From Rhodospirillales bacterium (GTDB lineage Bacteria > Pseudomonadota > Alphaproteobacteria > MPNO01 > UBA2964), in contig JAYOEY010000002.1 of NCBI GenBank assembly GCA_038116945.1, positions 20,958 to 84,957 of the forward strand: DNA of 64,000 nt, given 5' to 3'. Made by a program: the position numbers and the translations under genes. This document shows, in pieces, positions 10,864-44,606 of the stretch (position 1 is its first letter; the number at the start of each line of letters is the position of its first letter). Below the pieces are notes generated by a model, which did no database searches, was not told the origin of the DNA, and saw only the letters and a list, made by a program, of their open reading frames with translations.

Positions 10864-12588
10864 CTATTGCAGCTTGTCCGTCGAGGGGGCGCAGGGGCTG
10901 ACACCGCCGTTCGCGGTTCCTCTTCTTCGCGCCAGCGCATCCTTCAGCCGGTGTTCGAATACGGTCGATGCCTCGCGCTGATACAGAACGTTCGTCAACG
11001 TCCGCCAGATTCGTTTCGGGTAGAAGAGATAGCTGATGAGGTAGTTGGTCACCATGAAACCCAAACGATAGATCGCAAGTTCCCGGCGGCCGATCGTCTC
11101 GTTGTGCGTGAGCGGCTTGAGCGATGTAAATTCGCTGTTGAGCGACGTCAGCCCGAGGAAATAGCGGTCGCTCAGCTCAATCACGCCGCTTTCCTGAAGG
11201 TGCGCGAAAATTTCCGTGCCGGGATAGGCGGAATAGATGTTGATCGATGCCTCGTCGACGCCCCTTGCGGCCATCTTGAGCCCGAACCAGACGGTCCGGT
11301 ACACATCGGCGCGCGTTTCGCCCGGAAAACCGATGATCAGGTTGGTCCGAAGCGTCAACCCCAGCCTTCGCGCCGCCATCACCGATTCCGTCAGGCGATC
11401 GAGCGACACCTTTTTCTTGATCAGCTCCAGCGTTCTGGGCGAGCCGCTTTCCGGCGCGTAACACAGATAGGTGCAGCCGGTCTTTTTCAGCAGCCCAAGC
11501 GTCTCCGCATCCAGCGCCTCCGAGCGGGTGCCCGACGGCAGCGACCATTTTACGTTGATGCCTTCGTCCAGCATCCGCTGGCACAGTTCGACGGTCCATT
11601 GTTTCTTGGTGATCGCCGTCAGGTCGTAGAGCTGTATCGACGTGATGTCGTATTCGCGGATGTAATGTTTCATCTCGGCGATGACGTCGTCGATGTCGCG
11701 CAGCAGATATCGCGTCGTCCACATCTGCGCGCTCGAGCAGAAGGTGCACTGAAACGGGCAGCCGCGCGAAATCATCATCGGCATGTCCCGTTCGGTCTGG
11801 ATGCCGAAAGACTTGCCGGCAGACCAGAATTTTTCCAGATAGCCGTTCTGCCAGTGGGGCCACGGAATGTTGTCGACATCCCGGATCCGGGTCAGGCCGA
11901 CGCTTTCCAGAAACTGTCCGTCGGGTCCGATCGTACAGACGCTGGCCAGGTTCGCCGGATCGCTTCCCTCGCGAACGGCCTCGACGATTTCGTAGAAGAC
12001 ATGCTCGCCCTCGCCCAGCGCGATGGCATCCAGCGCCGGGCAGTCGCGCAGCGAATATTCCGGCAGCGCGGTTGCGTGTTCGCCTCCCGCGACCAGAAAA
12101 GCGTCGGGAAAACGCGCGCGAACGGCTTCGATCAGCCGACGGTGTATCGGCCACTCGCCGGAAAACATGGTCGAAAACCCGATGACCCGGGCGTTTCCGG
12201 GGATCATCGCGACGGTCTGTTCGATGGTGATGCCCTGACACTGGTATCCGTCGATTCCCTCCGGGTGCCAGATGACGTTGAGCCCTTCGCCGACCGCATC
12301 GACGATGACCGGTTCATAGCCGCGTTTCTTCAGATAGCCGGCAATGAAAGCCAGCCCGATCGCGGGCGTCGCTTCGTTATTGAAAGCCGCGTAGGTGGAA
12401 AGGATCGGGCCCCGGACCAGCGCCACGCCGAATTCCGCTGCGCCGGCGTCGGCCGATACAGCGCCGACATCTCTCATGATCGGGCGCGGATTGCCGAACT
12501 TGCCGGGCGCGGGCGCGTTCAGCGAGCCCGGATCGGAACCCGGATCGGAAGTCGTGTCGATGTTCGCGGAGCCTGACATTGCAACCAT
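10864..12588 (-). CDS. cobalamin-dependent (class B-like) radical SAM enzyme number 1 (possible start at Met38, nt 12477)
   Basis: N-terminal B12-binding-like region (AIGLAFIAGYLKKRGYEPVIVDA) followed by a radical SAM core with ISRGCPFQCTFCSS (C-x3-C-x2-C). Confidence 0.8.
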   Translation of the reverse strand: MVAMSGSANIDTTSDPGSDPGSLNAPAPGKFGNPRPIMRDVGAVSADAGAAEFGVALVRGPILSTYAAFNNEATPAIGLAFIAGYLKKRGYEPVIVDAVGEGLNVIWHPEGIDGYQCQGITIEQTVAMIPGNARVIGFSTMFSGEWPIHRRLIEAVRARFPDAFLVAGGEHATALPEYSLRDCPALDAIALGEGEHVFYEIVEAVREGSDPANLASVCTIGPDGQFLESVGLTRIRDVDNIPWPHWQNGYLEKFWSAGKSFGIQTERDMPMMISRGCPFQCTFCSSAQMWTTRYLLRDIDDVIAEMKHYIREYDITSIQLYDLTAITKKQWTVELCQRMLDEGINVKWSLPSGTRSEALDAETLGLLKKTGCTYLCYAPESGSPRTLELIKKKVSLDRLTESVMAARRLGLTLRTNLIIGFPGETRADVYRTVWFGLKMAARGVDEASINIYSAYPGTEIFAHLQESGVIELSDRYFLGLTSLNSEFTSLKPLTHNETIGRRELAIYRLGFMVTNYLISYLFYPKRIWRTLTNVLYQREASTVFEHRLKDALARRRGTANGGVSPCAPSTDKLQ

Positions 12589-12767: not shown

Positions 12768-12832
12768 TTGACGTTCATGGCGCGAACGCTTTAGTGTTCG
12801 TGCCGTGAACAAGATTGTTCAGAACGTGAACG
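12768..12832. promoter_or_regulatory. operator cluster 1: three tandem GTTC-N7-GAAC palindromes, overlapped by a TTGACG -35-like hexamer
   Basis: CGTTCATGGCGCGAACG (12772-12788), TGTTCGTGCCGTGAACA (12795-12811), TGTTCAGAACGTGAACG (12816-12832). Centre-to-centre spacings are 23 and 21 bp. TTGACG at 12768-12773. An AT-rich tract (ATAAAATAAGGAAAATAAAGAATATTC) lies immediately upstream. Confidence 0.6.
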
Positions 12833-12876: not shown

Positions 12877-13509
12877 ATGACAACGAATACTGTCTCGGAA
12901 GATGAAGCGAAAATAACGCTGGGTCTTCTCAACGCCATCGAGGCGAACAGCAAGGTGACGCAGCGAACCGTCGCCCACGACCTCGGTATCGCGCTCGGGC
13001 TGGCCAACGCTTACCTGAAACGATGCGTTCGCAAGGGGCTCATTAAGGTCCAGCAGGTTCCCGCAAACCGGTACGCCTATTATCTCACGCCGCAGGGTTT
13101 TGCGGAAAAGAGCCGGCTTACGGCCGAATATCTCACCATTTCGCTCAATTTTTTCCGCCGCGCGCGAAACGAATGCGCGGAAGTGTTTCGTCAGTGCGAA
13201 CAGCTTGGTTGGCGGCGGGTCGTTCTCGCCGGTACGGGCGACCTGACGGAAATTGCAACGCTGTGCGCGAATCATGCAGAGATCGAGCTGGTCGGTATCT
13301 ACGATCCCGCCGGGACAGCGGCGGATTTTTCCGGTCTGCGGGTGTCCGACAATCTGGCGGCGCTGGAACCCTTCGACGGCGTGGTCATTACCGCGTTCCG
13401 CAATCCGCAGGAAAGTTTCGATGCGCTGGTCCGGATGATTCCGGCCGCGCGCATCGCCGCGCCGGCGCTCCTCGGAATCTCGCGCGAACCGCCGCAGCTG
13501 ATGGAATAG
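12877..13509 (+). CDS. winged helix-turn-helix transcriptional regulator with a C-terminal Rossmann-like domain (Rex-like architecture)
   Basis: N-terminal wHTH (VTQRTVAHDLGIALGLANAYLKRCVRKGLIKV) and a C-terminal alpha/beta region with a glycine-rich loop (RRVVLAGTGDLTEIA). The track start at 12805 is GTG and overlaps the operator boxes, so the ATG at 12877 is preferred. Confidence 0.6.
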   Translation: MTTNTVSEDEAKITLGLLNAIEANSKVTQRTVAHDLGIALGLANAYLKRCVRKGLIKVQQVPANRYAYYLTPQGFAEKSRLTAEYLTISLNFFRRARNECAEVFRQCEQLGWRRVVLAGTGDLTEIATLCANHAEIELVGIYDPAGTAADFSGLRVSDNLAALEPFDGVVITAFRNPQESFDALVRMIPAARIAAPALLGISREPPQLME

Positions 13510-13512
13510 ACG

Positions 13513-14049
13513 ATGAACGCGTTTCTCGCAGATACGATGGACGGAAGCACCTGCTGGTACGTGGTGCACACCCACGCGCGGGCGGAAGAAACCGCGCAGC
13601 GCAATCTGATCCAGCAGGGTTTCCAGGCGTTTCTGCCGCAATACATGAAAAAGCGCCGGCATGCGCGGCGGACCGACTGGGTAAGCGCGCCGCTGTTTCC
13701 GCGTTACCTGTTCGTCGCGATCGATGTCGCCCGGGCGCGCTGGCGGTCGATATCGTCGACCATCGGCGTTCAGCATCTGATCTGCTGCGGGGAAATGCCG
13801 GTGGCGGTTCCTGAGGCGGTGATCGCGGAGATTCGCGCGCGCATGGATGAAACCGGAATGGTTCCGGTCAGACAGAAAGTACCGTTCCGCAAGGGCGAAA
13901 CGGTACTCGTCACCGGCGGGCCGCTTGCCGACCAGGTCGGGCTGTTCGACTGCGTCAGCGACGAGGAAAGGGTATTCCTTCTGCTCGACATTCTCGGGCG
14001 GCAGGTAAAGGTCAGGGTGCCGCTCGACGCCGTCACGCAATTCGCGTAA
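13513..14049 (+). CDS. NusG paralog (RfaH/UpxY/LoaP-like specialised transcription antiterminator)
   Basis: 178 aa with an NGN domain (WYVVHTHARAEETAQRNLIQQGFQAFLPQY...PLFPRYLFVAID) and a KOW-like C-terminus (GETVLVTGGPLADQVGLF). It is not in a secE/rplK context and its ATG lies 4 nt after the regulator's stop codon. Confidence 0.75.
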   Translation: MNAFLADTMDGSTCWYVVHTHARAEETAQRNLIQQGFQAFLPQYMKKRRHARRTDWVSAPLFPRYLFVAIDVARARWRSISSTIGVQHLICCGEMPVAVPEAVIAEIRARMDETGMVPVRQKVPFRKGETVLVTGGPLADQVGLFDCVSDEERVFLLLDILGRQVKVRVPLDAVTQFA

Positions 14050-14052
14050 CGC

Positions 14053-14065
14053 GGCGCGCGGCGCC
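14053..14065 (+). other. short GC hairpin GGCGC-GCG-GCGCC directly after the NusG-paralog stop (possible pause/attenuator; no U-tract)
   Basis: Perfect 5-bp inverted repeat with a 3-nt loop. Confidence 0.2.
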
Positions 14066-14107
14066 AGAGGCCAGCGCCCACGGGTGAGACATCGGTTTCA
14101 CCCGAAC

Positions 14108-14119
14108 GGTGGTAGCGTG
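14108..14119 (+). promoter_or_regulatory. ops-like element GGTGGTAGCGTG (11/12 match to the E. coli RfaH ops GGCGGTAGCGTG) in the leader of the plus-strand Pse operon
   Basis: On the coding strand, 19 nt upstream of the 14138 ATG and 59 nt downstream of the NusG-paralog stop codon. Confidence 0.5.
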
Positions 14120-14137
14120 GCCAAAATCACCCAAGAC

Positions 14138-14800
14138 ATGCCGCTTGCCGACAACGATAGCTGGCCGCTCAACGAAGACGGCGTGTGGATCGACCTCCGC
14201 GGGAAACCTCGGGAAAGGCCCGGTCCGGTCCTGTTTCTCGATCGCGACGGCGTCATCATTTTCGATGCCGTCTATGTCGGCGATCCCGCGGATGTGGCAA
14301 TTCTGCCGGATGCCGCCCGCATGATCGCAACGGCCAACCGGATGGAAATACCGGTCGCCGTCGTTACGAACCAGTCCGGGATCGACCGGGGATATTTCGG
14401 CTGGTCCGATTTCGATGGCGTGATGAAGCGGATTGCCGACGAGCTGGCGTCCAGGGGCGCCCATCTCGATGCGGTGGCCGCCTGTCCCTTTCATCCCGAT
14501 TTCACGCCGGGCTATGGCGCCATGCACGACGGGTGGCGCAAGCCCGGCGCGATGATGATCCTGACCCTGGCAAAAGAACTCAACGCGGATCCGTCGTCGT
14601 CCTGGATGGTCGGCGATCAGGAAAGCGACATCCTTGCGGCGGCGGCGGCGGGGCTGGGCCATGCGCTTCTGTTGAGTGACGCCGGCGGCGACAGCCGCGC
14701 CGCGCCGGTCGGGCCGTCCGGAACGAAGATCGTGACGGGCAATCTGGCGGGTTTCCTGGACAGCGGGACGGGCTTGTTCGCCAGCGCGAAAACGCGTTAG
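14138..14800 (+). CDS. HAD-family phosphatase, D,D-heptose 1,7-bisphosphate phosphatase (GmhB)/histidinol-phosphatase-like
   Basis: LFLDRDGVII (HAD motif I), VVTNQSG, GWRKPGAMMIL and VGDQESD motifs. The ATG at 14138 is preferred over the GTG at 14084, which would bury the ops-like element in coding sequence. Confidence 0.7.
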   Translation: MPLADNDSWPLNEDGVWIDLRGKPRERPGPVLFLDRDGVIIFDAVYVGDPADVAILPDAARMIATANRMEIPVAVVTNQSGIDRGYFGWSDFDGVMKRIADELASRGAHLDAVAACPFHPDFTPGYGAMHDGWRKPGAMMILTLAKELNADPSSSWMVGDQESDILAAAAAGLGHALLLSDAGGDSRAAPVGPSGTKIVTGNLAGFLDSGTGLFASAKTR

Positions 14801-14811
14801 CGGATCGTGGG

Positions 14812-15675
14812 TCAGTCGACGTCGAGACAGCTTTTCAGACCCGTCGACAGGTCGATCCCGGGTCGCCAGCCCAGCAGGGACTCGGCCTGCCTGGTGTCGG
14901 CAAACACGCATGGCGTGGGATCGTCGTCATCCTGACGCTGGGTGACGACTCCATCCTCTCCGCCGGCGATATCCCGCAGGAGCTGGACGACATCGCCGAT
15001 CCTGGTCGGTTTTCCGGTGCCGATATTGAGAGCCGTCATGGCGCCCGGTCTGGTTACGGCTTTTGCAATGGCATGGGCGACGTCGTCGACGTGAATGAAA
15101 TCCCTGATCGATTCCCGGTTTCTCACCTGTGCTTCGCCTTGGCCGCGAATCGCGCGGATAAGGTAAGGTATAAGGAAATATTCGGACTGGCCGGGCCCGT
15201 AGACATTGAACAGCCGGACAATGGTGCCCCTTACGCCGTGGACTTTCGCGTAATGTCGACAGAGTTCCTCACCCATATGTTTCGTCAAGGGATAGAGCCA
15301 GCGGGGCTCAACGGTGGCCGTCTCGGAAAGCGGTTCGGTCTCGGCGCGGGGCGCGTAGACGCCCGAGGTCGATGCAAAGACGATCGCCGCGCTGTTCCGG
15401 CGACAGGCCTCGAGGGCGTTTGCGAGCCCGGCGACGTTTACCGAAACCGTCTCGCCGGGATTTTCGGGCGCCCCGGACGGCGTCCGGGCGGCAAGGTGAA
15501 CGAGAGCGTCGAAATCGGCGCTGAACGTGTCGCTGTCGCGAACGTCTCCGTCGAGGATTCGAACGGCGGCCTTCTCACGCGACAGAGACCTGCGCACCGC
15601 CCGGCCGATGAAGCCGTTCGCTCCGGTGATGGCGATGATCGGGGCGTCGGTTTTACGGGGTTCGCGGGATGCCAT
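14812..15675 (-). CDS. NAD-dependent epimerase/dehydratase (SDR)
   Basis: IAITGANGFIGRAV Rossmann motif and YPLTK (YxxxK). Confidence 0.7.
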   Translation of the reverse strand: MASREPRKTDAPIIAITGANGFIGRAVRRSLSREKAAVRILDGDVRDSDTFSADFDALVHLAARTPSGAPENPGETVSVNVAGLANALEACRRNSAAIVFASTSGVYAPRAETEPLSETATVEPRWLYPLTKHMGEELCRHYAKVHGVRGTIVRLFNVYGPGQSEYFLIPYLIRAIRGQGEAQVRNRESIRDFIHVDDVAHAIAKAVTRPGAMTALNIGTGKPTRIGDVVQLLRDIAGGEDGVVTQRQDDDDPTPCVFADTRQAESLLGWRPGIDLSTGLKSCLDVD

Positions 15676-15719
15676 CGGATCGATCCGGCTTCGATTTCGT
15701 ATGGAGGGTGCGCCGCACC

Positions 15720-16757
15720 ATGACCGTACAGCCCAATCTAGGCAAGGGGGTGAAGGACGCGCGGGCGAACCCGGCGCGGATTTCAGTTGTCGCCCCGGCC
15801 TATAACGAATCGGAAAACCTGCCGGTACTTTTCGAGCGCGTTCGAGAAGCGCTCGAAGGCATAGACGTTCCGTTCCAGCTTCTGGTGGTGGAGAACGGCA
15901 GTACCGACAACAGCATCGATGTGCTGCGGGACATGCATGAACGCGATCCCCGCCTCAACTATATCCGGCTGTCGCGGAATTTCGGACATCAGGGCGCCCT
16001 TACCGCCGGAATGGCGGTGGCGGAGGGCGATGCGTTGATCTCCATGGATGCCGATCTGCAGCACCCGCCCGAGGTGCTGCCTGAAATGATCGCCAAGTGG
16101 CGGGAAGGATATGACGTCGTCATCGCGGTCGCGAACACCAATGCAACGCAGTCCCTTGCCCGGCGGATCATAAACCGGATTTATTATTCCGTGATAACGG
16201 GCATCTCCGGTCTCGACCTGCGCGGCGGGCTTTCGGATTTTCGCCTGATGGACGGAAGCGCCGCCCTCGTCATGAAAAGCCTGCCCGAGCGGTCCCGCTA
16301 TCTGCGCGGTCTGGCCCGCTGGATAGGGTTCTCCCAGACATCGATCAGCTATGAGATCGCCGAGCGGTTTCGCGGGGAGTCGAAATTTTCGCTGGGGCAG
16401 CTCTTTCGATTCGGGGTCGATGGCGCGCTTGCCTTTTCGATCCTGCCGCTCCGGCTGTTCCTGGTTCTCGGATTTTTTGTCGCCGGCTCGTCGTTGCTCT
16501 ACGCATGCTATCTCGTGATGTCAAAGCTGCTGTCCGACCATTTCGGTATCGGAGAGAACGCCGTAAGCGGCTTTACCACCCTCGCGGCCGGCATTTTCTT
16601 CCTGAGCGGCACGATTCTGATGGGGATCGGCATTCTAGGCGAATATATCGGCCGTATTTACGACGAGACGAAAGCGCGTCCGAGCTACATCGTCTGGGAA
16701 TCGTCCCTGAAGGATCCGGATCCTGAATCCGGCTCCGACCCGCGGGAAGCCCGTTGA
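15720..16757 (+). CDS. GT2 polyprenyl-phosphate glycosyltransferase (GtrB/ArnC/DPM1-like)
   Basis: ISVVAPAYNESENL, LLVVENGSTDNS and SMDADLQHPPE (DxD) motifs with two C-terminal transmembrane helices. GGAGGG ribosome-binding site 11 nt upstream. Confidence 0.75.
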   Translation: MTVQPNLGKGVKDARANPARISVVAPAYNESENLPVLFERVREALEGIDVPFQLLVVENGSTDNSIDVLRDMHERDPRLNYIRLSRNFGHQGALTAGMAVAEGDALISMDADLQHPPEVLPEMIAKWREGYDVVIAVANTNATQSLARRIINRIYYSVITGISGLDLRGGLSDFRLMDGSAALVMKSLPERSRYLRGLARWIGFSQTSISYEIAERFRGESKFSLGQLFRFGVDGALAFSILPLRLFLVLGFFVAGSSLLYACYLVMSKLLSDHFGIGENAVSGFTTLAAGIFFLSGTILMGIGILGEYIGRIYDETKARPSYIVWESSLKDPDPESGSDPREAR

Positions 16758-17473
16758 TGGCGGAATTGCCCCATGTCGCCATATTGTGCGGTGGCCGCGG
16801 CGTGCGGTTGCGGCCGCTGACCGAGCAGGTTCCCAAGCCCATGGTGCCGGTCAACGGCCGCCCGATGCTCGATCACGTCATCGATTTTTATGAGGCCAGA
16901 GGAATCCGGCGTTTCACCCTGTGCGCCGGCTATCGCGCGGACGTCATTCGCGAGCATTACGCCGATGCCGGGCGCCCGTCGGTCATTACGATTTCGGAGG
17001 CGGGCGAGGACGCCGGCATGCTGCGTCGTCTGTGGGCGCTCAGGGACGAGCCGTTCGACCGTCTGCTCGTCGCCTATGGCGACACGTTCGTCGACCTCGA
17101 TCTCGACGACCTGATCCGCAGGCATGAAGAGCTCGGAACGCCCGCAACCATTCTGACGGCGGAGATCACCAACCCCTTTGGCCTGGTTGACGAGACCAAC
17201 GGCCGCGTGACCTCGTTTCGCGAAAAGCCCGTGATGCGGTATTACGTAGGCTGCGCGTTGTTCGAACGAGATATTTTTTCGGAAATGACCCCGGAAATGG
17301 TCGACATGCCCGACGGGAACGGGCTGGTCGCTCTTTTTCATAAAATGCTGGGCGACGGTCGGCTCGGCGCCTACCTGCATGGCGGTCTGCAGCTCACCTT
17401 CAACACCCACGAAGAACATCGTCGGGTCGAAAGCGAAATCGGCAGCTACTACACATATAGTGAAAATCAATGA
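16757..17473 (+). CDS. sugar-1-phosphate nucleotidyltransferase (HddC/MurU-like)
   Basis: VAILCGGRGVRLRPLTEQVPKPMVPV and YGDTFVDLD motifs. ATG overlaps the upstream TGA. Confidence 0.7.
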   Translation: MAELPHVAILCGGRGVRLRPLTEQVPKPMVPVNGRPMLDHVIDFYEARGIRRFTLCAGYRADVIREHYADAGRPSVITISEAGEDAGMLRRLWALRDEPFDRLLVAYGDTFVDLDLDDLIRRHEELGTPATILTAEITNPFGLVDETNGRVTSFREKPVMRYYVGCALFERDIFSEMTPEMVDMPDGNGLVALFHKMLGDGRLGAYLHGGLQLTFNTHEEHRRVESEIGSYYTYSENQ

Positions 17474-18465
17474 ATGAACTAAAAGGCAAACGCGTTCTGA
17501 TAACCGGGGGCAGCGGTTTCATCCCGTCGCATCTCACCCGGCGTCTGGTTAAGGGCGGGGCGAACGTCACCATCACGACCAAATACAACAGCGTCATCGA
17601 CAACGCGCGGATCGCCGATGTCTGGAACGACATCAACGTCATCGAGGCGGATCTCCGCAATTTCGACATCCTGCGCCAGCTCGCGGTGCTCAAACCCGAG
17701 ATCATTTTTCACACGGCGGCCTACAATCATGTGGGCTCCAGTTTCGACAATTTCGCCGAGGCGATGGATTCCAACGCCAAGGGGACCGCGAACCTTCTGG
17801 AAGCCTACGAGGATTACGAACGCTTCATCTATATTTCGTCCTCCGAAGTGTACGGGGCGCAGGACAGCGTTCCGTTCGTCGAGACCATGACGCCGCACCC
17901 GATCTCTCCCTATGCGATCGGGAAATATGCCGGCGAGCTTTACGCCTGGATGAAAATGGACCAGGTGGGACGTCCGATTGCGATCGTCCGTCCGTTCAAC
18001 GCCTATGGCCCCTATCAGAGTCAGCGGGCCGTAATTCCCGAGATCATCGTCAAATGTTTGAAGGGCGAGGCCATACCCCTTACCGAAGGTCGCCAGACCC
18101 GCGAATTCAATTACGTCGAGAACCTTGTCGACGGTTTCATCCTCGCGGCGACCAGGGAAGCCGCGCTCGGTCAGGTCATCAATATCGGGGCGGGCGAGGA
18201 AACCTCCATCCGCGACCTGCTGCACCTGATCCATCAGCTCACCGATTCGACTTCCGAACTTCAGATCGGCGCCCTGCCGCATCGGCCGACCGAAATCTGG
18301 CGCATGTGCGCCGACGCCACGCGCGCCCGGGATCTACTCGGCTGGGAGCCAAGGGTCCGGCTGGCCGAGGGGCTCGAACGCACGATCGCCTGGCATCGCG
18401 ACTATATGGACGTGTTCGAGAACCCTGCGGGTGCGCTGCAGCGCCTGGTGACGCACGGCTCGTAA
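17470..18465 (+). CDS. NAD-dependent epimerase/dehydratase (extended SDR)
   Basis: VLITGGSGFIPSHL and YAIGKYAGE (YxxxK). Confidence 0.75.
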   Translation: MNELKGKRVLITGGSGFIPSHLTRRLVKGGANVTITTKYNSVIDNARIADVWNDINVIEADLRNFDILRQLAVLKPEIIFHTAAYNHVGSSFDNFAEAMDSNAKGTANLLEAYEDYERFIYISSSEVYGAQDSVPFVETMTPHPISPYAIGKYAGELYAWMKMDQVGRPIAIVRPFNAYGPYQSQRAVIPEIIVKCLKGEAIPLTEGRQTREFNYVENLVDGFILAATREAALGQVINIGAGEETSIRDLLHLIHQLTDSTSELQIGALPHRPTEIWRMCADATRARDLLGWEPRVRLAEGLERTIAWHRDYMDVFENPAGALQRLVTHGS

Positions 18466-18528
18466 CGCGCCTTTCATCAGGTCCGATCGACCGGAGACGA
18501 AGCAGTGCCGCCTGATGGCGGCGAAACC

Positions 18529-19707
18529 ATGCCCATGACGCAGCGACGTTATATTCCTTACGGCCGCCAGGACATCGACGATCACGACAGGGCCGCCGTC
18601 GACCGAATCCTGCGCGCTGATTTCATCACGCAGGGACCGGCTATCGACGCGTTTGAAGCAGACCTCGCCGGATTGTGCGAATCCCGCTATAGCGTTGCCG
18701 TCAGCAGCGGCACTGCCGCGCTGCACCTCGCCTATCTCGCGCTTGGCGTCGGGCCCGGCGACACCGTCTGGACCACGCCCAACAGTTTTGTCGCGACCGC
18801 GAATGCCGCCCTCCTCTGCGGGGCGAAGGTCGACTTCGTCGATATCGATCCCGACACCCGATGCATGAGCCCCCAGGCGCTGGAGCGCAAGCTGGCCGCG
18901 AGCTCCGCGACAGCGCTGCCCAAGGCGGTCGTACCGGTTCATTTCGGCGGCCATTGCTGCGATATGCCCGCCATCGCCGGGCTCGCCGCAGCGTATGGAT
19001 TCCGGGTCGTCGAGGACGGCGCGCATTCGCTGGGGGCGGCATACAGGGACGCCGACGGCGCCCGGCACATGTTCGGTTCCTGCGCGCACGCCGACCTGGC
19101 GATCGCAAGCTTCCATCCGGTGAAGATAATCACCACCGGAGAGGGCGGTGCGGTCATGACCGGCGATGCCGAACTCGATCGTCGCCTGCGGCTGCTGCGG
19201 AGCCACGGCGTGACCCGCGATGCCGGGCTGATGGAAAACCCCTCAGAGGGCGACTGGTATTACGAGCAGGTTGCGCTCGGCCTCAACTACCGCATCACGG
19301 ATCTGCAATGCGCGCTGGGCAGCAGCCAGCTCGCGCGGCTGCCCGGTTTTCTCGAAAGACGGCGTCACCTGGCGGCCCGGTACGATGAGCTGCTTTCCGG
19401 TCTGCCGGTTCGCCGGCCGACAGTCATGCCGGGACACGAACCGGCCTGGCATCTCTACGCGATAGAGGTCGACGCCGACCGACGCCGATCTGCGTTCGAT
19501 GCCATGCGCGCCGCGGGCATCGGCGTTAACGTGCATTACATCCCGATCCATCTGCAGCCCCATTACCGTCGACTTCAGTTCGCGCCCGGACAGTTCCCGG
19601 TTGCGGAACGGTATTACCGGGGGGCGCTGTCCCTGCCGCTGTTTCCCGGTCTTGAAACTGACGAGCAGGATCATGTGGTATCCGTGCTGGCCGAGGCGCT
19701 GTCGTGA
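18529..19707 (+). CDS. pseC: DegT/DnrJ/EryC1 aminotransferase, PseC-like (UDP-4-amino-4,6-dideoxy-N-acetyl-beta-L-altrosamine transaminase)
   Basis: YIPYGRQDIDDHDRAAV start typical of PseC/ArnB, SSGTAALHLA, SFHPVKIITTGEGG (PLP lysine) and LRSHGV. Confidence 0.7.
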   Translation: MPMTQRRYIPYGRQDIDDHDRAAVDRILRADFITQGPAIDAFEADLAGLCESRYSVAVSSGTAALHLAYLALGVGPGDTVWTTPNSFVATANAALLCGAKVDFVDIDPDTRCMSPQALERKLAASSATALPKAVVPVHFGGHCCDMPAIAGLAAAYGFRVVEDGAHSLGAAYRDADGARHMFGSCAHADLAIASFHPVKIITTGEGGAVMTGDAELDRRLRLLRSHGVTRDAGLMENPSEGDWYYEQVALGLNYRITDLQCALGSSQLARLPGFLERRRHLAARYDELLSGLPVRRPTVMPGHEPAWHLYAIEVDADRRRSAFDAMRAAGIGVNVHYIPIHLQPHYRRLQFAPGQFPVAERYYRGALSLPLFPGLETDEQDHVVSVLAEALS

Positions 19708-20609
19708 GGATTGTGCTGGGGTCCGCGCAGTTCGGGTCCGACTACGGCATATCGAACAAGGTCGGCCGGCTTTCCGGGGACGCGGTGAAATCGCTTCTGA
19801 CTCGCGCCCGCAGTCATGGTATCGACACGATCGACACCGCGTGCCTTTACGGCGACGCTGAAAGCGTCCTTGGCGAATCGCTCGGGGACCCGGGGTGGAA
19901 AATCGTCACCAAGACGCCAAAATTTACCGGCCTGACGGGCGCGCGGGCGGTCGAAGGCCTGCGCGCTGCTTTCGATGCCTCGCTGGAACGTCTTCGCCGG
20001 GACCGGCTGCAAGGTCTGCTGGCACATGATGCCGACGATCTGCTGGGTCCCCATGGACCGCGAATCTGGCGTGCAATGCAGGATCTGAGGGCCGATGGCC
20101 GGGTCGGGATGATCGGGGCTTCGGTCTATACCGGCGGCCAAATCGACGGCCTGCTGGCGAGATACGATCTCGATCTCATCCAGCTGCCCCTTAACATGCT
20201 CGACCGCCGCCTTGTGGATGGAGGCCAGCTGGAAAAGCTATTGGCTGCCGGCGTGACGGTTCATGCGCGATCGGTATTTCTGCAGGGGCTGCTTCTGATG
20301 CCGCCCGAAGGGTTGCCGCCGCGATTTGCGGATATCGCGCCGCGTCTCCGGGTCCTGCGCGAACGGCTGTCCTGCATGGGGTTGTCGCCGGTCGAGGGCG
20401 CCCTCGCAGCGGTCAGGGCAGGACCTGAAATCGACGCTATCGTCGTCGGCGTCACCAGCACCTGCGAGCTGGACGAAATCGTGAGCGCGGCGGAGAGGAT
20501 TGCCGGCCTCGAGACGGATTTGCCGTTTGAAGAATTTGCGGTTGCGGACGCGACCGTTCTCGATCCACAACATTGGCCGGATCGGCGCCCGCAGGGCGTC
20601 GTGGGCTAG
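19704..20609 (+). CDS. aldo/keto reductase (GTG start overlapping pseC stop)
   Basis: VLGSAQFGSDYG, DTIDTACLYGDAE. Confidence 0.7.
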   Translation: MRIVLGSAQFGSDYGISNKVGRLSGDAVKSLLTRARSHGIDTIDTACLYGDAESVLGESLGDPGWKIVTKTPKFTGLTGARAVEGLRAAFDASLERLRRDRLQGLLAHDADDLLGPHGPRIWRAMQDLRADGRVGMIGASVYTGGQIDGLLARYDLDLIQLPLNMLDRRLVDGGQLEKLLAAGVTVHARSVFLQGLLLMPPEGLPPRFADIAPRLRVLRERLSCMGLSPVEGALAAVRAGPEIDAIVVGVTSTCELDEIVSAAERIAGLETDLPFEEFAVADATVLDPQHWPDRRPQGVVG

Positions 20610-20618
20610 GAGAAACGA

Positions 20619-21830
20619 ATGCTGAAAAAATGCAGCCAGTGCGGTCTGCCGGAAACCTACGAGACGATCGAGTTCGACGGACAGGGCGTCTGCAATATCT
20701 GCAATCAGAAGTCCTATCGCGACGGCGCCATCGACTGGGACGCACGCTACGCCATTCTCGCCGATCTGATCGAGCAGTACCGGGGCAAGCACGATTACGA
20801 CTGCATCGTGCCGTTTTCCGGCGGAAAAGATTCGACCTATACGCTGTGGCGGCTGGTAACGGACTTCAAGATCAAGCCGCTGGTGGTTCAGTTCGATCAC
20901 GGCTTCATGAGACGCGGGCTCAGGGAAAACAATCTGAGAACCTTCAAGAAGCTGGGCGTGGACGTTCTTTCCTTCACGCCCAACTGGAAACTGGTCAAGC
21001 GTCTGATGCTGGAGGCGCTCGTCCGCAAGGGCGATTTCTGCTGGCACTGCCATACCGGAATCTTCTCTTACCCCATGCATGTCGCGCTCCGTTACGAGGT
21101 GCCGCTGGTCTTCTGGGGAGAGCCATCGAGCGAATACACGGCCTATTACGACTACCGCGACGACGAGATCGAGGAGGTCGACGAGGAGCGGTTCAACCGG
21201 TTCGTCAATCTGGGGATCACGGCCGAGGACATGGCCGGCATGATCGACGCCGATTTCGAATTCGACAGGCGCGATCTCGCGCCGTTTACCTACCCGCCGC
21301 TCAGGAGCCTCAAGCGGCTGGGTTACCGGTCGGTGTGTCTGGGGTCGTTCATCCCGTGGGATGTTCGCAAACAGGTTGGAATCATAGAACGCGAACTGGG
21401 CTGGAAGGGCGATCAGGTCGAAGGCATGCCGTGGGATGCGTACCCTTATGAAAAGATCGAGTGCTTCATGCAGGGTATGCGCGATTACATCAAGTACATG
21501 AAGCGGGGCTATTCGCGCGTCAGCCAGATGGTTGCGCTCGATCTTCGCAACGGGCGGATCGAAAAGGAAGCGGCGGACAGGCTGGTGGAACAGTTCGAAG
21601 GCCGGAAGCCGCCCTCGCTTGAAATCTTTCTCGAATATCTCGGCCTGACCGAGGACGAATTCAATTCGATCGTCATGAAAACCGTCGTTCCGCCGCACGC
21701 GCCAGACCTTGCGTCGCTTGAGGTTGCTCCCAGGACATGGGATTTCGATCAATGGTATCGCGAGGCGCCCGAGGACCGGGGAATCCCGTGCAAACCGGGC
21801 GCTTGCCGCACCTGTTTCGACTGCGCCTGA
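20619..21830 (+). CDS. PP-loop N-acetyl sugar amidotransferase (PseA/WbuX/WbpG family), copy 1
   Basis: N-terminal Cys cluster (CSQCGLP...CNICNQ) and PP-loop (CIVPFSGGKDSTY). AGGAGA ribosome-binding site 6 nt upstream. Confidence 0.8.
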   Translation: MLKKCSQCGLPETYETIEFDGQGVCNICNQKSYRDGAIDWDARYAILADLIEQYRGKHDYDCIVPFSGGKDSTYTLWRLVTDFKIKPLVVQFDHGFMRRGLRENNLRTFKKLGVDVLSFTPNWKLVKRLMLEALVRKGDFCWHCHTGIFSYPMHVALRYEVPLVFWGEPSSEYTAYYDYRDDEIEEVDEERFNRFVNLGITAEDMAGMIDADFEFDRRDLAPFTYPPLRSLKRLGYRSVCLGSFIPWDVRKQVGIIERELGWKGDQVEGMPWDAYPYEKIECFMQGMRDYIKYMKRGYSRVSQMVALDLRNGRIEKEAADRLVEQFEGRKPPSLEIFLEYLGLTEDEFNSIVMKTVVPPHAPDLASLEVAPRTWDFDQWYREAPEDRGIPCKPGACRTCFDCA

Positions 21831-21863
21831 CGGACGGCGCGACTGCCAACCGGCTCCCGGCGG

Positions 21864-22481
21864 ATGATCGGCATTCTCGACATCGGGATGGGCAATCTCG
21901 GCTCGGTATGGAACGCGACTTACGAGTCGGGGTTCGATCCCGAGATCGTCATCGATCCGGACGATCTCGACCAGATCGACCACCTCATCCTGCCCGGGGT
22001 CGGCCATTTCGCGACCGCGATGGAAAAACTCTGCGAAATGGGCATGGTCTCGCCGCTCAGGAGCTATGTCGAAAGCGGCCGTCCGCTGCTCGGTCTCTGC
22101 GTCGGCATGCAGGTGCTGGCCACCGAGGGAACGGAAGGCGCCAGGACGCCAGGGCTCGATATCATCGCCGGGACGGTCGACCGACTGCCGGTCAATCCGC
22201 CCTTCCGGGTACCGCATATCGGCTGGAACGCGGTCAGCGCCGTCCGGGATCATCCCGTCCTGGAGCGCATCAAACCTGAACGGGACTTTTACTTCGTCCA
22301 TTCCTACGCGTTCCGTCCGGTGGACGAGGCGAACATCGTGGCAAGAACCGAATACGGCGCGCCGTTTGCATCGATCGTCGGCCGGGCGAACGTACTCGGG
22401 TGCCAGTTCCACCCCGAGAAGAGTCAGGCCAACGGGTTGCGGATCCTGGAAAACTTCTGCCGGTGGGACGGGGTATGCTGA
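21864..22481 (+). CDS. HisH-like glutamine amidotransferase (WbuY-like), copy 1
   Basis: IGILDIGMGNLGSV, LLGLCVGMQVL (catalytic Cys), CQFHPEKS. Confidence 0.85.
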   Translation: MIGILDIGMGNLGSVWNATYESGFDPEIVIDPDDLDQIDHLILPGVGHFATAMEKLCEMGMVSPLRSYVESGRPLLGLCVGMQVLATEGTEGARTPGLDIIAGTVDRLPVNPPFRVPHIGWNAVSAVRDHPVLERIKPERDFYFVHSYAFRPVDEANIVARTEYGAPFASIVGRANVLGCQFHPEKSQANGLRILENFCRWDGVC

Positions 22482-23239
22482 AAAAACGCATCATCGCCAT
22501 CCAGCTCCTGCTCGGGGAACGGCTGGTCAAGACCCGCGAATTCGGCGGTTACCGAGATGTCGGCGATCCCGTAAAAAGCGCCGCCGTCTACAATTCGCAG
22601 CATCTCGACGAGCTGATCCTGCTGAATATCGATCGCGACCGGCGCTCGGCTGACGTTTTCGCCGACTGGCTCAAGGAAATTTCCAAGGTCTGTTTCATGC
22701 CGCTGTCGATCGGCGGCGGCATCACCGGGTTCGACGACGCGGCGTTTCTGATCAAGAACGGCGCCGACAAGGTCGTGGTCAACAGCGCCGCATACCGCGA
22801 CAAGAAGCTTCTTGGAGAAATCGCGAACCGTTTCGGATCGCAGGCAGTCGTTGTCGGCATCGATGTGAAGCGGGACCCCTCGGACGGGCGCATCCGGCTC
22901 TATTCGGATTGCGGCCGAAGCGCCGAGCCGGTCGCGCTCGCCGATCACATCCGTTCCTGCGTCGATGCCGGCGCGGGCGAAATTTTTGTCCAGTCGATCG
23001 ACAATGACGGGGTCATGAAAGGGTTCGATATCCCGCTGATCGCGGAAACGCAGGCGGCGGCCGCCGTACCGGTAATCGGCGCCGGCGGGTCCGGCACCTA
23101 CGAGATGCTCCGCGAGGCCTTTGTCGCGACCGATGTCAGCGCGCTCGCCTGCGGCAGCATGTTCAATTTTACGGACAGCCAGTGGATGCGGGCCAAGGCG
23201 CATCTGACCAATTACGGACTTCCCTTCAAGGCGGTGTGA
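22475..23239 (+). CDS. HisF-like cyclase subunit (WbuZ-like), copy 1
   Basis: MLKKRIIAIQLLLGERLVKTREF and SIGGGITGFDD. Overlaps the upstream gene by ATGCTGA. Confidence 0.85.
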   Translation: MLKKRIIAIQLLLGERLVKTREFGGYRDVGDPVKSAAVYNSQHLDELILLNIDRDRRSADVFADWLKEISKVCFMPLSIGGGITGFDDAAFLIKNGADKVVVNSAAYRDKKLLGEIANRFGSQAVVVGIDVKRDPSDGRIRLYSDCGRSAEPVALADHIRSCVDAGAGEIFVQSIDNDGVMKGFDIPLIAETQAAAAVPVIGAGGSGTYEMLREAFVATDVSALACGSMFNFTDSQWMRAKAHLTNYGLPFKAV

Positions 23240-23240
23240 C

Positions 23241-23798
23241 GTGACCGGTTCGACGGAGACGGTTCTCGAAGGGGAGATCATACGGCTGCGTTATCTCGAC
23301 GAGGACGACGCCACCCCGGTTTACGCCGGCTGGATGAATGCGCCGGAAATAAACCGCTTTCTCGAGAGCCGGTTCGCGGTCCAGACCGTCGATACCGTCC
23401 GCGATTTCATCCGTGCCGCGCGCGACAATGAAGATGTCCATCTGTTCGGCATGTTCCTGCGGCGGGACGGCCGACATGTGGGAAACATAAAGCTGGGCCC
23501 CATCGACCGCAGACACGGCACCGCCGATGTCGGGCTTCTTGTCGGGGCGGCGGATGTCTGGGGACAAGGCGTGGCAACCGATGCCATCGCGCTGGTTGCG
23601 CGGTTTGCGACCGGGCCGCTCGGGCTCCGCCGCGTGACGGCTGGCGCCTATGCCCGGAACGCCGGCTGCATCCGCGCTTTCGAGAAAGCGGGTTTCGTCA
23701 GGGAAGGCGTCCTGCGCCGGCAGGTCATCGGGGCCGACGGCGTGGCGGACGATGTGATCAAGCTGGGCGTTCTCGCCGAAGAGCTCGCCGGGTCATGA
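23241..23798 (+). CDS. GNAT family N-acetyltransferase (GTG start)
   Basis: RimL/PseH-like fold (IRLRYLDEDD...NAGCIRAFEKAGFVREGVLR). Confidence 0.65.
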   Translation: MTGSTETVLEGEIIRLRYLDEDDATPVYAGWMNAPEINRFLESRFAVQTVDTVRDFIRAARDNEDVHLFGMFLRRDGRHVGNIKLGPIDRRHGTADVGLLVGAADVWGQGVATDAIALVARFATGPLGLRRVTAGAYARNAGCIRAFEKAGFVREGVLRRQVIGADGVADDVIKLGVLAEELAGS

Positions 23799-24547
23799 TC
23801 GCGATCCTGCAGGCCCGCATGTCGTCGACCCGGCTGCCCGGCAAGGTGCTGGCTCCCATTCTGGGCCGGCCGATGCTGTCATTGCAGATTGAGCGAATCG
23901 GACGCGCGCGCGCCTGTAAAAACCTGATTGTGGCGACCAGCGACCAGGCGGAGGACCAGCCCATTGCCGATCTCTGCGCGGAGATCGGCGTTGCGGTCTA
24001 TCGCGGCTCGCTGAACGACGTCCTCGACCGGTTCTACCGGGCCGCGCTGCCCCACCGGCCGGATCGAGTGATTCGCCTGACGGCCGATTGTCCGCTGGCC
24101 GACTGGACCGTGATCGACCGTGTCTGCGATGCGGCCGAGGCCGGAGGATACGATTACTGTTCCAATACGGTGGACCCCACCTGGCCCGACGGGCTCGACG
24201 TGGAAGTCGTCAGCTTCGAAGCGCTTGAAACCGCCTGGCGGGAAGCGGAATCGCCCTCCGAGCGCGAACATGTCCTGCCGTTCATCCATCGCCGTCCGGA
24301 CAGGTTCGGCATCGGTTCGGTCCGGAACGACCGCGACCTGTCTCATCTGCGATGGACCGTCGACGAACCGGCCGATCTCGATCTGGTGCGGTGCGTGTAC
24401 GAAGCGCTCTACCCCGCCGATCCGGCCTTTACGACCGACGACATTCTCGATTTTCTGGATGCCCACCCCGAGCTTGTCCGGCTTAACGCCCATATCGAAC
24501 GCAACGAAGGCCTGAAGCGTTCGGATGGCGCCGGCAACGCCGCCTGA
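23795..24547 (+). CDS. CTP_transf_3-family cytidylyltransferase (SpsF/COG1861-like), copy 1
   Basis: MIAILQARMSSTRLPGKVL and RLTADCPL. Confidence 0.65.
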   Translation: MIAILQARMSSTRLPGKVLAPILGRPMLSLQIERIGRARACKNLIVATSDQAEDQPIADLCAEIGVAVYRGSLNDVLDRFYRAALPHRPDRVIRLTADCPLADWTVIDRVCDAAEAGGYDYCSNTVDPTWPDGLDVEVVSFEALETAWREAESPSEREHVLPFIHRRPDRFGIGSVRNDRDLSHLRWTVDEPADLDLVRCVYEALYPADPAFTTDDILDFLDAHPELVRLNAHIERNEGLKRSDGAGNAA

Positions 24548-25853
24548 AACGGAAACGCCCGTGAACAGTCCCGTATTTACTGAATCCGAAACCCTGCTCG
24601 AACGGGCGCTTCGCACCATTCCGCTGGGCGCTCAGACTTTTTCCAAGAGCGCGGTCCAGTACCCGCGCGGCGTCTCGCCCTATTTCCTCGAGCGGGGGGA
24701 TGGTTGTCGGGTATGGGATGTCGACGGCAACGAATATATCGATTTCGTCAACGGGCTGTGCGCGATGACCCTGGGCTATCGCGATCCTGACGTCGATGCC
24801 GCGGTCCGGGGGCAGCTCGATCGGGGGGTCATCTTCAGCCTCTCGCACCCGCTCGAGATGCAGGTCGCCGAAACGATTGTCGAGATGGTGCCCTGCGCCG
24901 AGATGGTTCGGTTCGGCAAGAACGGTTCCGATGCGACGACCGGCGCAATTCGTCTGGCCCGCGCCTTTACCGGCCGCGACCGCATCGCCGCGTGCGGCTA
25001 TCACGGCTGGCAGGACTGGTATATCGGATCGACCTCGCGCAATCGGGGGGTTCCGCAGGCTACGCGCGAACTGACCCATGGCTTTGCTTTCAACAAGTTG
25101 GACACATTGCGCGACCTGTTCCGGAAATTTCCCGGCGAGATCGCAGCGGTTATTCTGGAACCCATGAACACGACCCGGCCCGCCCCCGGATTTCTCGAGG
25201 GCGTGCGCGACCTGTGCAAGGCCGAAGGCGCGTTGCTGGTTTTCGACGAAATGATCACCGGTTTCCGGTTCGCCGATGGCGGTGCGCAGCAACTGTTCGG
25301 CGTGACGCCCGATCTTTGCAGCCTCGGCAAGGGCATGGCGAACGGTTATCCCCTGTCGGCGGTCGCGGGCCGGGCGGACGTGATGGCGCTGATGGAGGAG
25401 GTCTTCTTTTCGTTCACGATGGGCGGTGAAGCGCTGTCGCTCGCCGCCGCCCTGGCGACAATGGAAAAGACCAGGACGATGGCGGTTACCGCTCGCCTTG
25501 CCGAACTCGGAACCCGGCTTCAGGACGGAGTGGAGGAACGAATCGCGCGTCACGGCTGCAGCGACTTCCTTTCCAGCGCCGGGCATCCGAGCTGGTCTTT
25601 CCTGCTGTTCGCCGATTGCGGCGACTATTCGTCCTGGGACATCAAGACGCTCTGGATGCAGGAAATTCTCGCGCGCGGAATCCTGTCGTTCGGAACCCAC
25701 AACATGTCCTACGCCCACGGGCCGGCGGAAATCGACCGTCTGCTCGAAGTCTATGACGAGGTGTTTCCGGTTCTTCGCGCAGCGGTGTTAGAAAACAGGA
25801 TGAACGACTATCTGCGGTGCGCCCCGCTGCAACCTCTTTTTCGGGTCCGGTGA
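24525..25853 (+). CDS. class III aminotransferase (glutamate-1-semialdehyde aminomutase-like)
   Basis: VFDEMITGFRF and SLGKGMANGYP (PLP lysine). Confidence 0.75.
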   Translation: MAPATPPETETPVNSPVFTESETLLERALRTIPLGAQTFSKSAVQYPRGVSPYFLERGDGCRVWDVDGNEYIDFVNGLCAMTLGYRDPDVDAAVRGQLDRGVIFSLSHPLEMQVAETIVEMVPCAEMVRFGKNGSDATTGAIRLARAFTGRDRIAACGYHGWQDWYIGSTSRNRGVPQATRELTHGFAFNKLDTLRDLFRKFPGEIAAVILEPMNTTRPAPGFLEGVRDLCKAEGALLVFDEMITGFRFADGGAQQLFGVTPDLCSLGKGMANGYPLSAVAGRADVMALMEEVFFSFTMGGEALSLAAALATMEKTRTMAVTARLAELGTRLQDGVEERIARHGCSDFLSSAGHPSWSFLLFADCGDYSSWDIKTLWMQEILARGILSFGTHNMSYAHGPAEIDRLLEVYDEVFPVLRAAVLENRMNDYLRCAPLQPLFRVR

Positions 25854-28718: not shown

Positions 28719-28814
28719 CTCGCCATGGTCGCGGTCGTCAGTCCGGATGCCGCATCCCGACCCGCTTCTGCGGAAGCCGGGAAACCCCTTTCATTCTGAA
28801 TTCATAGAAGCTTG

Positions 28815-30170: not shown

Positions 30171-30174
30171 GGCA

Positions 30175-34307: not shown

Positions 34308-34309
34308 AC

Positions 34310-41952: not shown

Positions 41953-41992
41953 CGTTCATTGCCTGAACAATACATTGTTCGCGGCGTGAACA
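41953..41992. promoter_or_regulatory. operator cluster 2: CGTTCATTGCCTGAACA + TGTTCGCGGCGTGAACA
   Basis: Same two-box architecture and 23 bp spacing as clusters 1 and 3. Located 43 bp upstream of the MBOAT start codon (minus strand). Confidence 0.55.
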
Positions 41993-44370: not shown

Positions 44371-44606
44371 TAAAGCCCCATTTCCGTTGGGCGTTACCGA
44401 ATCAAACAAGTCCCCGGCGGTCGTTCCGGGCGCCGACGGGGAATGAACTTCCGCCTGCCGACGGGGCTTGTCCGCCCGATTCCAGTATGAAATCCTGCCC
44501 TTTAGACAAAACGTTATGTAGTCTGCGCCCCCGACTCGATCAACCCTTAACTTGTCGACGCCTCGCCGATTGACCGTCGGGCGCCGGCCGGACCGCCTGC
44601 TGAACC

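Follow-up and report, generated by a model that had tools for sequence, protein, structure and literature searches.

A conserved hairpin–ops element next to an RfaH-like NusG paralog gene in alphaproteobacterial glycan loci: a probable loading site

We analyzed a 64,000-nt stretch of Rhodospirillales bacterium DNA (contig JAYOEY010000002.1), hereinafter the window, in which a gene for a winged helix-turn-helix (wHTH) regulator (12877–13509), a gene for an RfaH-like NusG paralog with NGN and KOW domains (13513–14049, 178 aa), and a 12-mer similar to the operon polarity suppressor (ops) element, GGTGGTAGCGTG (14108–14119), follow each other on the plus strand. The textbook example of a universal elongation factor loaded in a sequence-specific manner is RfaH/ops; here the paralog is the proposed loader, and the 12-mer with an adjoining hairpin is the proposed loading site. 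The 12-mer is identical to E. coli ops GGCGGTAGCGTG at 11 of 12 positions, the sole difference being T instead of C at position 3; the first-pass annotation of this DNA had given the same coordinates and count. The stop codon TAA of the RfaH-like open reading frame (ORF) is at 14047–14049, with 58 nt, rather than the 59 nt counted before, between it and the 12-mer. The first downstream gene (14117–14800, plus strand) encodes a HAD-IIIA/GmhB-like phosphatase (TIGR01656, 109 bits; TIGR01662, 98 bits). Its first in-frame ATG, 14138, is the start assumed earlier, at a distance of 18 nt, not 19 nt, past the 12-mer; an alternative start is GTG 14117–14119, formed by the last three bases of the 12-mer, which is in the HAD frame and is used in the gene call of L081, a contig 99% identical to the window.

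The 12-mer was compared across 82 loci encoding homologues of the RfaH-like protein with 46–99% identity (83 sequences with the window), coming mostly from alphaproteobacterial metagenome-assembled genomes (MAGs; Rhodospirillales, Hyphomicrobiales, a Rhodobacterales MAG) and including Bradyrhizobium sp. Tv2a-2. A covariance model finds GCGGTAGC(N)TG 48–125 nt past the rfaH-like stop in about 50 of the 82 loci, and the exact core G(C/T)GGTAG is present in the same interval in 44 of the 83 sequences. Conservation of the 12-mer in orthologous leaders had been set beforehand as a check, and the outcome is positive: the 12-mer is kept in these approximately 50 loci, while its flanks drift. The family consensus is TGCGGTAGCgTG; the match in the window covers 14076–14132 (26.6 bits, E = 6e-6). 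The alignment of 50 sites shows no variation at ops positions 2 and 4–9 and conservation of 90% or more at positions 3, 11, and 12; in it, T at position 3 occurs in the window and in its near-identical twin L081 only, C3 being otherwise 98% conserved. In a set of 42 distinct sequences chosen by the ops core alone (the ops-core set), GCGGTAGC is 98–100% conserved, T11 and G12 are 98% conserved, position 1 is T in 81%, and position 10 is free (G in 67%); a conserved G at +13 and an A-rich run follow. In about 45 aligned leaders, the sequence from the rfaH-like stop to the element shows no conservation, and this gap is short, mostly 50–70 nt, and variable in sequence.

The association was also assessed from the DNA side, by a search for the exact 19-mer TCACCCGGACTGCGGTAGC in metagenome contigs. 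More than 120 contigs among the matches listed carry it; 93 of the listed contigs have at least 650 nt upstream of the site, and in 78 of these an rfaH-like gene is directly upstream, 10 more have an operator module (described below), and 5 have neither. The association of the rfaH-like gene and the site is reciprocal. For the window by itself, one match to ops with at most one mismatch is observed on both strands, versus 0.48 expected. The earlier estimate of one chance match per 450 kb is thus too low, the rate being about one per 130 kb of duplex; the claim made with it, that a chance match in the leader is unlikely, stands, at a probability of about 3e-4 for a leader of about 88 nt on one strand.

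Two further candidate features of the ops region were rejected. Position 10 varies between G, A, and T, which prompted a start-codon test of the NTG at the end of ops; it is not a conserved start codon. A second hairpin over the ops 3′ end (e.g., CATGGC-TGAAC-GCCATG) is seen by eye in about 20 of 50 loci, but not all loci have it, and it does not keep a constant register. Positions 1–6 of ops (GGUGGU) can pair, in the RNA of the window, with AUCACC at 14127–14132; this pairing (14108–14132), which could sequester ops in the transcript, has no obvious conservation.

Upstream of ops the window encodes a hairpin, CGGGUGAGAC-AUCG-GUUUCACCCG (14081–14104, plus strand), proposed to be a pause hairpin and/or an upstream recognition element. 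Its fold has −16.7 kcal/mol (z = −4.55), and none of 200 shuffles fold as well. The conserved block of the family is TTTCACCCGGAC-TGCGGTAGCNTG-G, then an A-rich run; here TCACCCGGAC is the 3′ arm of the hairpin, and the 5′ arm, (G/C)TCCGGGTGA, is 3–11 nt upstream. The stem of 7–10 bp, GGGTGA...TCACCCGGAC, is kept in about 50 loci, with loops of 3–11 nt. The 3′ arm, TCACCCG, is 98–100% conserved in the ops-core set, the 5′ arm much less. In a model-based alignment, 86% of cells pair; the covariation score is 0.109 versus 0.078 in shuffles (reached by 0 of 500) and at most 0.039 in slid-partner controls, with compensatory changes in the four outer pairs (GTCC/GGAC to CTCC/GGAG, GTCT/AGAC, and AGGG/TCCT). 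The hairpin reading is supported mainly by loops that vary in length, by covariation of the outer pairs, and by a junction with ops that stays fixed. Wobble pairs were tried as an indicator of which strand is folded, and 23 G-U versus 17 A-C cells are too weak to decide. The 3′ arm could also be read as sequence, a point that we leave open.

The last base of the hairpin directly precedes ops position 1, which would put it about 11 nt behind an RNA 3′ end at U11. A class I (hairpin-dependent, NusA-type) pause hairpin sits about 11 nt behind the RNA 3′ end. Experiments on Bacteroides opsX have shown that hairpins there stabilize pauses enhanced by NusA, so that UpxY gains time for binding; UpxY also reads the upstream duplex DNA (Saba et al., 2024; PMC11685472).

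The protein encoded before this element has a Pfam NusG/NGN match of 72 bits. Its best NCBIfam model is RfaH TIGR01955, at 125.8 bits (cut-off 144.5), followed by the RfaH model NF006534 at 84.7 bits (cut-off 124), so that both RfaH equivalog scores are missed; UpxY (NF033644) gives 84.4 bits (cut-off 100), NusG (TIGR00922) 59, and LoaP 49.5. In a comparison with PDB, RfaH is matched at E = 1.9e-14 and NusG at about 3e-6, and more than 1,797 homologues are found at E ≤ 1e-10, many of them labelled RfaH. The earlier assignment of an NGN + KOW paralog distinct from the housekeeping nusG is borne out both by the higher scores of RfaH compared to NusG and by the neighbouring wHTH and HAD genes, which differ from the secE–nusG–rplK context. 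The AlphaFold2 (AF2) model has a mean predicted local distance difference test score (pLDDT) of 86.4, and its KOW domain is a β-barrel (pLDDT 82–89). The best full-length fold match in Foldseek is the fully recruited RfaH on an ops-paused complex (8phk_P, template modelling scores 0.60/0.64); autoinhibited RfaH aligns over the NGN domain alone. An α-helical, autoinhibited KOW was sought with AF2, which predicts the β-barrel instead and cannot exclude a second fold. For residues 1–10 of the ORF (13513–13539), most homologues have no aligned counterpart and pLDDT is below 50, so that the true start may be M9 (ATG 13537); a start at 13537 would give 170 aa, the typical family length.

Residues H20, R23, and Q24 of E. 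coli RfaH, which we take to be ops contacts, correspond to N31, Q34, and Q35 in the window; among the 82 homologues, the first is H in 38 and N in 44, the second is R in 61, and the third is Q in all. R138, presumably the partner of E48 in E. coli RfaH, is R153 in the window and R in 82 of 82. Of the DNA-binding determinants K10 and R73 (Wang et al., 2020; PMC7593976), also compared as ops contacts, the former is H21 in the window (family: H in 54, Q in 15, R in 11, and K in 2 of 82), and the latter is I84 and never R in the family (0 of 82; I, V, F, or L). Of the autoinhibition determinants given in the same paper, E48 is A59 in the window and never E in the family (A in 63 of 82), I93 is I104 (V in 54, I in 28 of 82), and F130 is F145 (F in 82 of 82). 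In context and predicted fold the protein resembles RfaH, and it lacks two of the features that mark E. coli-type RfaH. By sequence and position, an ops element, GGCGGTAGnnTG, is present in the predicted leader of the target operons.

The wHTH ORF, whose start at 12877 is taken from the L081 gene call, ends at 13509, 3 nt before ATG 13513 of the RfaH-like gene, and a wHTH gene is directly 5′ of rfaH on the same strand in all 82 of 82 loci with upstream sequence. The regulator, a candidate palindrome binder, belongs to a family with at least 7,990 homologues. It has a MarR_EPS-like N-terminus (Pfam HTH_24, E = 3.8e-9; TIGR04176 MarR_EPS, 65.7 bits over the N-terminal 95 residues only, below the cut-off of 88) and a predicted Rossmann-like α/β C-terminal domain (residues approximately 110–205; AF2 pLDDT 95–98; no Pfam match). 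Sequence searches with the latter gave nothing above threshold; weak fold matches are to NAD-binding domains of UDP-glucose 6-dehydrogenase and to Salmonella enterica WbaP, chain 8t53_A. This domain may sense a nucleotide or a nucleotide sugar.

Upstream of the wHTH gene lies a predicted promoter/operator module (12768–12831, plus strand), with the −35 box TTGACG at 12768–12773 and the −10-like box TAGTGT at 12792–12797, and with three GTTCN-N5-NGAAC palindromes (12773–12787, 12796–12810, and 12817–12831). Palindromes GTTCA-N5-TGAAC number 7 in the window versus 0.7 in shuffles. A promoter with tandem palindromes is found 650–830 nt 5′ of the rfaH-like start in 81 of 81 loci, usually with a palindrome spacing of 22–23 bp; its consensus in 43 loci is CTTGAC-GTTCAtnncnTGAAC-gnggTAgT-GTTCacgccnTGAACA, a layout with the palindromes lying across spacer, −10 region, and start site. 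The TTGACG/TAGTGT module would act as a promoter, and the wHTH protein would bind the palindromes and repress, as suggested by the geometry and by MarR-type precedent. In other loci, distal hairpin–ops copies follow such palindromes at 66–236 nt. The predicted cassette is [operator-bearing promoter]-wHTH-rfaH-like-[hairpin–ops]-glycan genes, and further operons appear to be preceded by [operator-bearing promoter]-[hairpin–ops]. A third palindrome pair in the window (41954–41991) is situated between the start of a minus-strand MBOAT gene (40513–41910) and the end of a B12-binding radical SAM gene (42274–44409, minus strand); the covariance model found no hairpin–ops near it in the window, and its membership in the circuit is uncertain.

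The window contains a second hairpin–ops (49416–49451, plus strand), composed of CGGGUGGA-CCUGU-UUCACCCG at 49416–49436, AAG, and TACGGTAGTGTG at 49440–49451 (covariance model match 49411–49464, 29.1 bits, E = 9e-7; hairpin −11.7 kcal/mol, z = −2.66). About 290 nt 5′ of this element there is a second promoter/operator module (49121–49163, plus strand; TTGACG, TATATT, palindromes 49126–49140 and 49149–49163), near-identical to the 12768–12812 module upstream of the wHTH gene. The element is 80 nt before a second plus-strand sugar operon, which begins with genes for a B12-binding radical SAM protein, an epimerase, a CBS-NTP transferase, and a cytidylyltransferase (49531–54396) and continues as plus-strand ORFs to about 62.8 kb. 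A factor serving this site must do so in trans. The circuit had been described as dedicated to a pseudaminic acid (Pse) locus; this does not hold, given the second element at 49.4 kb and the diverse polysaccharide genes downstream across the family.

We consider it likely that the RfaH-like NusG paralog, whose gene ends 58 nt before the 12-mer, is loaded at a JUMPstart-like site of alphaproteobacterial type, and that the 12-mer forms the ops core of this site. The idea of a loader and its loading site outside enterobacteria and Bacteroides goes back to the first-pass annotation, and the comparative evidence supports it well. Transcription would start from the promoter TTGACG-N18-TAGTGT upstream of the wHTH gene, where two or three overlapping GTTCA-N5-TGAAC palindromes are probably bound by the wHTH regulator, and would read through the wHTH and rfaH-like genes into the hairpin–ops. 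The RNA polymerase would pause at ops, by analogy with E. coli at U11, and the hairpin, in the geometry of a NusA-type pause hairpin, would prolong the pause. The RfaH-like NGN domain would be recruited by GCGGTAGC of the exposed non-template strand, possibly with help from the invariant TCACCCGGAC just upstream, and the modified polymerase would then cross the long, partly antisense Pse/glycan run with no premature, Rho-type termination; the same factor would act in trans at the second hairpin–ops at 49.4 kb. Pausing, recruitment, antitermination, the co-transcription of rfaH with its target, the identity of the palindrome-binding protein, and the position of the site in the transcribed leader of the target operons are, in this scheme, all predicted from sequence.

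Several observations weigh against this interpretation. The window protein retains one of the five E. coli ops-contact residues, Q24. With E48 absent and the KOW domain modelled as β, E. coli-style autoinhibition is not supported. Covariation is restricted to the four outer pairs of the stem, the inner six being essentially invariant, and the wobble asymmetry is weak, so that an RNA hairpin is not proven over other readings of the inverted repeat. The two sites of the window are the weakest of the set (26.6 and 29.1 bits versus 50–72), with T in place of the 98% conserved C3 in the first and A in place of the invariant G2 in the second. A minus-strand epimerase gene (14812–15675) stands between the first gene and the remaining plus-strand genes, and any transcript from ops to the Pse genes must run antisense through it (about 860 nt). 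Finally, about 30 of the 82 loci keep the wHTH–rfaH pair and have no hairpin–ops after rfaH.

These last loci, in which the operators are retained as well, include L002, L004, L011, L013, L016–L018, L020, L023, L033, L035, L040, L042, L044, L049, L050, L052, L055, L057, L060, L061, L063, L064, L067, L073, and L075; their loading sites, if any, must be elsewhere. The downstream DNA is alike in L060, L073, and L075, and L049 and L061 share a motif with them. L002 has on its plus strand, at positions 1282 and 2456, two identical 20-mers, AAAGCGGCGGTAGTGTCCTA, each with an ops-like GGCGGTAGTGTC and with no TCACCC arm; they are upstream of the wHTH–rfaH pair and may be another flavour of loading site.

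Among the alternative explanations, the one that survives best accepts both the loader and the site, and has the operon driven by a promoter of its own, located within the 58-nt gap or at the 3′ end of the rfaH gene, the factor always acting in trans, as in E. coli. It agrees with the second ops at 49.4 kb, which must be served in trans, and with the distal copies in other loci, which have their own operator/promoter 66–236 nt upstream; besides, a simple promoter scan is insensitive, the σ70 consensus scan being too strict for these promoters and missing even the conserved promoter of the family. But the aligned leaders, about 45 in number, have no conserved −35/−10 boxes or operator between the rfaH stop and the hairpin, the gap itself is short and variable, and the only conserved promoter module is that upstream of the wHTH gene; a separate promoter is unlikely in our view.

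Under another explanation, hairpin–ops is a conserved cis element that acts with no involvement of the RfaH-like protein, be it a consensus pause of general type, an element for RNA processing or stability that splits the mRNA of the regulator from that of the structural genes, or a site of some other factor, and its adjacency to rfaH reflects shared operon ancestry only. The ops sequence does fit the consensus of pause signals in general, and diverse RNA polymerases pause at sequences like ops (PMC7593976); the window protein has neither R73 nor K10, and the approximately 30 loci with the gene pair but no element point in the same direction. However, the 8-nt core GCGGTAGC, 98–100% conserved beside RfaH-like genes, is identical to the target of E. 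coli RfaH (PMC11685472), the association of gene and site is reciprocal (78 of the 93 listed contigs), and hairpin–ops also occurs away from rfaH behind the same operators, which suggests a regulon over shared ancestry. Independence from the protein seems improbable on this evidence.

Still harder to sustain is the view that a dimeric protein, such as the wHTH regulator, binds GGGTGA...TCACCC, alone or together with the 12-mer, as an operator in duplex DNA, and that the repeat is not a hairpin. The invariance of the inner six pairs on both arms and the weak wobble asymmetry would be expected of such a site, and UpxY does read upstream duplex DNA in Bacteroides (PMC11685472). Yet a fixed dimer site cannot accommodate an arm spacing of 3–11 nt, conservation is far higher in the 3′ arm than in the 5′ arm, the outer pairs covary, and the tandem GTTCA-N5-TGAAC palindromes over the promoter, with their fixed 22–23 bp spacing, are a much better operator candidate; we regard a duplex operator here as very improbable. 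The weakest explanation, that the 12-mer is a chance match or the ribosome-binding site and GTG start of the HAD gene, for which it speaks that GTG 14117 is in frame and used by the gene caller and that a single match per window, with one mismatch or none, would be nothing unusual, is refuted and hardly credible, as conservation of the element extends over about 50 loci and more than 120 contigs from metagenomes, and only 8 of 49 cases have the NTG in the frame of the downstream ORF, the distance from ops to the first start codon being variable (median about 33–43 nt).

The resulting picture of a likely loading site is close to E. coli RfaH/ops, with the same core GCGGTAGC followed by NTG in the same place of long polysaccharide operon leaders. 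The E. coli JUMPstart has a 5-bp stem, one base, and then GGCGGUAGCGUG, i.e., the same order (hairpin, 0–1 nt, ops) as the alphaproteobacterial element; the stem of the latter is different and longer (7–10 bp, GGGTGA/TCACCC), with an invariant 3′ arm. By sequence and fold E. coli RfaH is the closest to the window protein, and the presence of at least two sites in the genome of the window suggests action in trans here too. In contrast to E. coli, the factor gene is not stand-alone, but directly 5′ of its target site and always paired with the wHTH gene and an operator-bearing promoter; the protein also differs from RfaH in the absent R73 and E48, the mostly His residue in place of K10, the β KOW of the AF2 model, and a score below the RfaH equivalog cut-off. 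The Rfam JUMPstart-type family RF01707 (gathering score 35 bits) has no match in the window even at E ≤ 10, while the E. coli rfb leader taken as control gives 60 bits, and no match at the gathering score in 16 canonical alphaproteobacterial orthologous loci; other Rfam families gave nothing relevant in the window or in these 16 loci.

In Bacteroides, too, the NusG paralog UpxY is encoded beside the polysaccharide operon that it serves (Saba et al., 2024; PMC11685472). The opsX site is multipartite, of about 35–40 nt, with a hairpin just 5′ of the GCG..AGC hairpin of the non-template strand, and the start codon of the first gene is near it (PMC11685472); the element described here is likewise multipartite, with the start codon of the first gene near. 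The differences are that ops here is 3′ of the paralog gene (order wHTH, rfaH-like, ops), whereas opsX is 5′ of upxY; that there is no UpxZ-like gene, the partner being the wHTH regulator; that the core is of the E. coli type, GCGGTAGC, not YGCGNAGCR; that the UpxY model scores lower than RfaH; and that the pause function of the hairpin is here suggested by analogy. LoaP is likewise a NusG paralog encoded in cis, and the passages on it in PMC11685472 implicate a conserved hairpin of the leader in its recruitment; the LoaP model is the weakest of the paralog models here, and those passages describe no ops-type DNA core.

For Alphaproteobacteria, Wang et al. (2020; PMC7593976) attribute to this class 18% of all rfaH genes, find the neighbours of clusters CL2–CL8 (non-CL1) enriched in cell-envelope genes, and associate CL4 with an HTH regulator; recruitment is known there for E. 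coli RfaH only, and no ops, hairpin, or operator is described for CL2–CL8. CL4, with an association similar to the wHTH–rfaH pairing, is a possible counterpart of the window family. A literature search of incomplete coverage retrieved no paper on ops, the hairpin, or these operators in Alphaproteobacteria, with Wang et al. (2020) as the only relevant one. Already known, then, are the alphaproteobacterial RfaH homologues, their link to cell-envelope genes, and the link of one cluster to an HTH regulator (PMC7593976). What appears new, as far as sequence comparison goes, is the conserved hairpin–ops variant, its cis position right after the gene of the loader, the obligatory wHTH/operator tier, and the pairing of canonical ops with a protein that has neither R73 nor E48. 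The system is a variant of RfaH/ops, not a new category.

Autoinhibition is what makes ops obligatory for E. coli RfaH. One may speculate, and we offer this as a tentative combination that we would not call probable, that the family represents a pre-autoinhibition form of RfaH already reading canonical ops; that the factor is translated about 60 nt before the hairpin-stabilized ops pause of the same transcript, which would time its hand-over to the very polymerase that transcribed its gene; and that recognition proceeds partly via the invariant TCACCCGGAC, as upstream duplex DNA or RNA, instead of R73 and K10. A cis-loading mechanism has been proposed as ancestral (PMC7819879). If the combination is true, ops recognition is older than R73 and E48 instead of being a late acquisition, which is at odds with the order proposed by Wang et al. 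(2020), and E. coli ops and Bacteroides opsX belong to one evolutionary continuum.

The loading mechanism has so far been established in E. coli and, recently, in Bacteroides only, whereas the same 8-nt ops core is seen here across diverse Alphaproteobacteria (Rhodospirillales, Hyphomicrobiales, Rhodobacterales MAGs, Bradyrhizobium), joined to a conserved hairpin like the pause hairpins of Bacteroides. The cassette of regulator, loader, and site, with its two predicted tiers, a wHTH-controlled promoter and an elongation loader, is recurrent in many alphaproteobacterial sugar-polymer loci and would be a widespread natural system for testing how ops recognition and autoinhibition evolved. The element is a candidate for a new Rfam family and may be used for prediction of polysaccharide regulons in environmental genomes, and the cassette may provide parts for expression of long glycan clusters in alphaproteobacterial hosts.

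Downstream of the HAD gene, the minus-strand gene at 14812–15675 encodes a NAD-dependent epimerase/dehydratase (Pfam Epimerase, E = 1.6e-42), and is on the minus strand in L081 as well; it contradicts the uninterrupted co-directional operon of about 21 kb described earlier. It converges with the HAD gene, and its start adjoins a plus-strand GT2 gene (15669/15720) or overlaps it. The plus-strand glycan run of about 20 kb (15669–35533) then includes pseC, pseG, pseI, WbuX with HisH/HisF-like genes, two cytidylyltransferases, GT2, and others. PseC (494 bits), PseG (246), and PseI (492) all score above curated cut-offs, in agreement with the Pse label given before. The σ70-like scan has no match in 14050–34000 versus 4.2 ± 2.3 in shuffles, which is weak evidence, and a single long transcription unit across the Pse/glycan run is but weakly suggested. 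Two plus-strand ORFs of the run (25817–27337 and 26443–28029) overlap by about 900 nt in different frames, one start being probably wrong; one encodes a PseG + GNAT fusion, and the sole domain match of the other is a formyltransferase C-terminal domain at its end. The 64-kb region has three B12-binding radical SAM genes (10864–12588, minus; 42274–44409, minus; 49531–51578, plus), of which one is divergent from the wHTH promoter and another is the first gene after the second ops.

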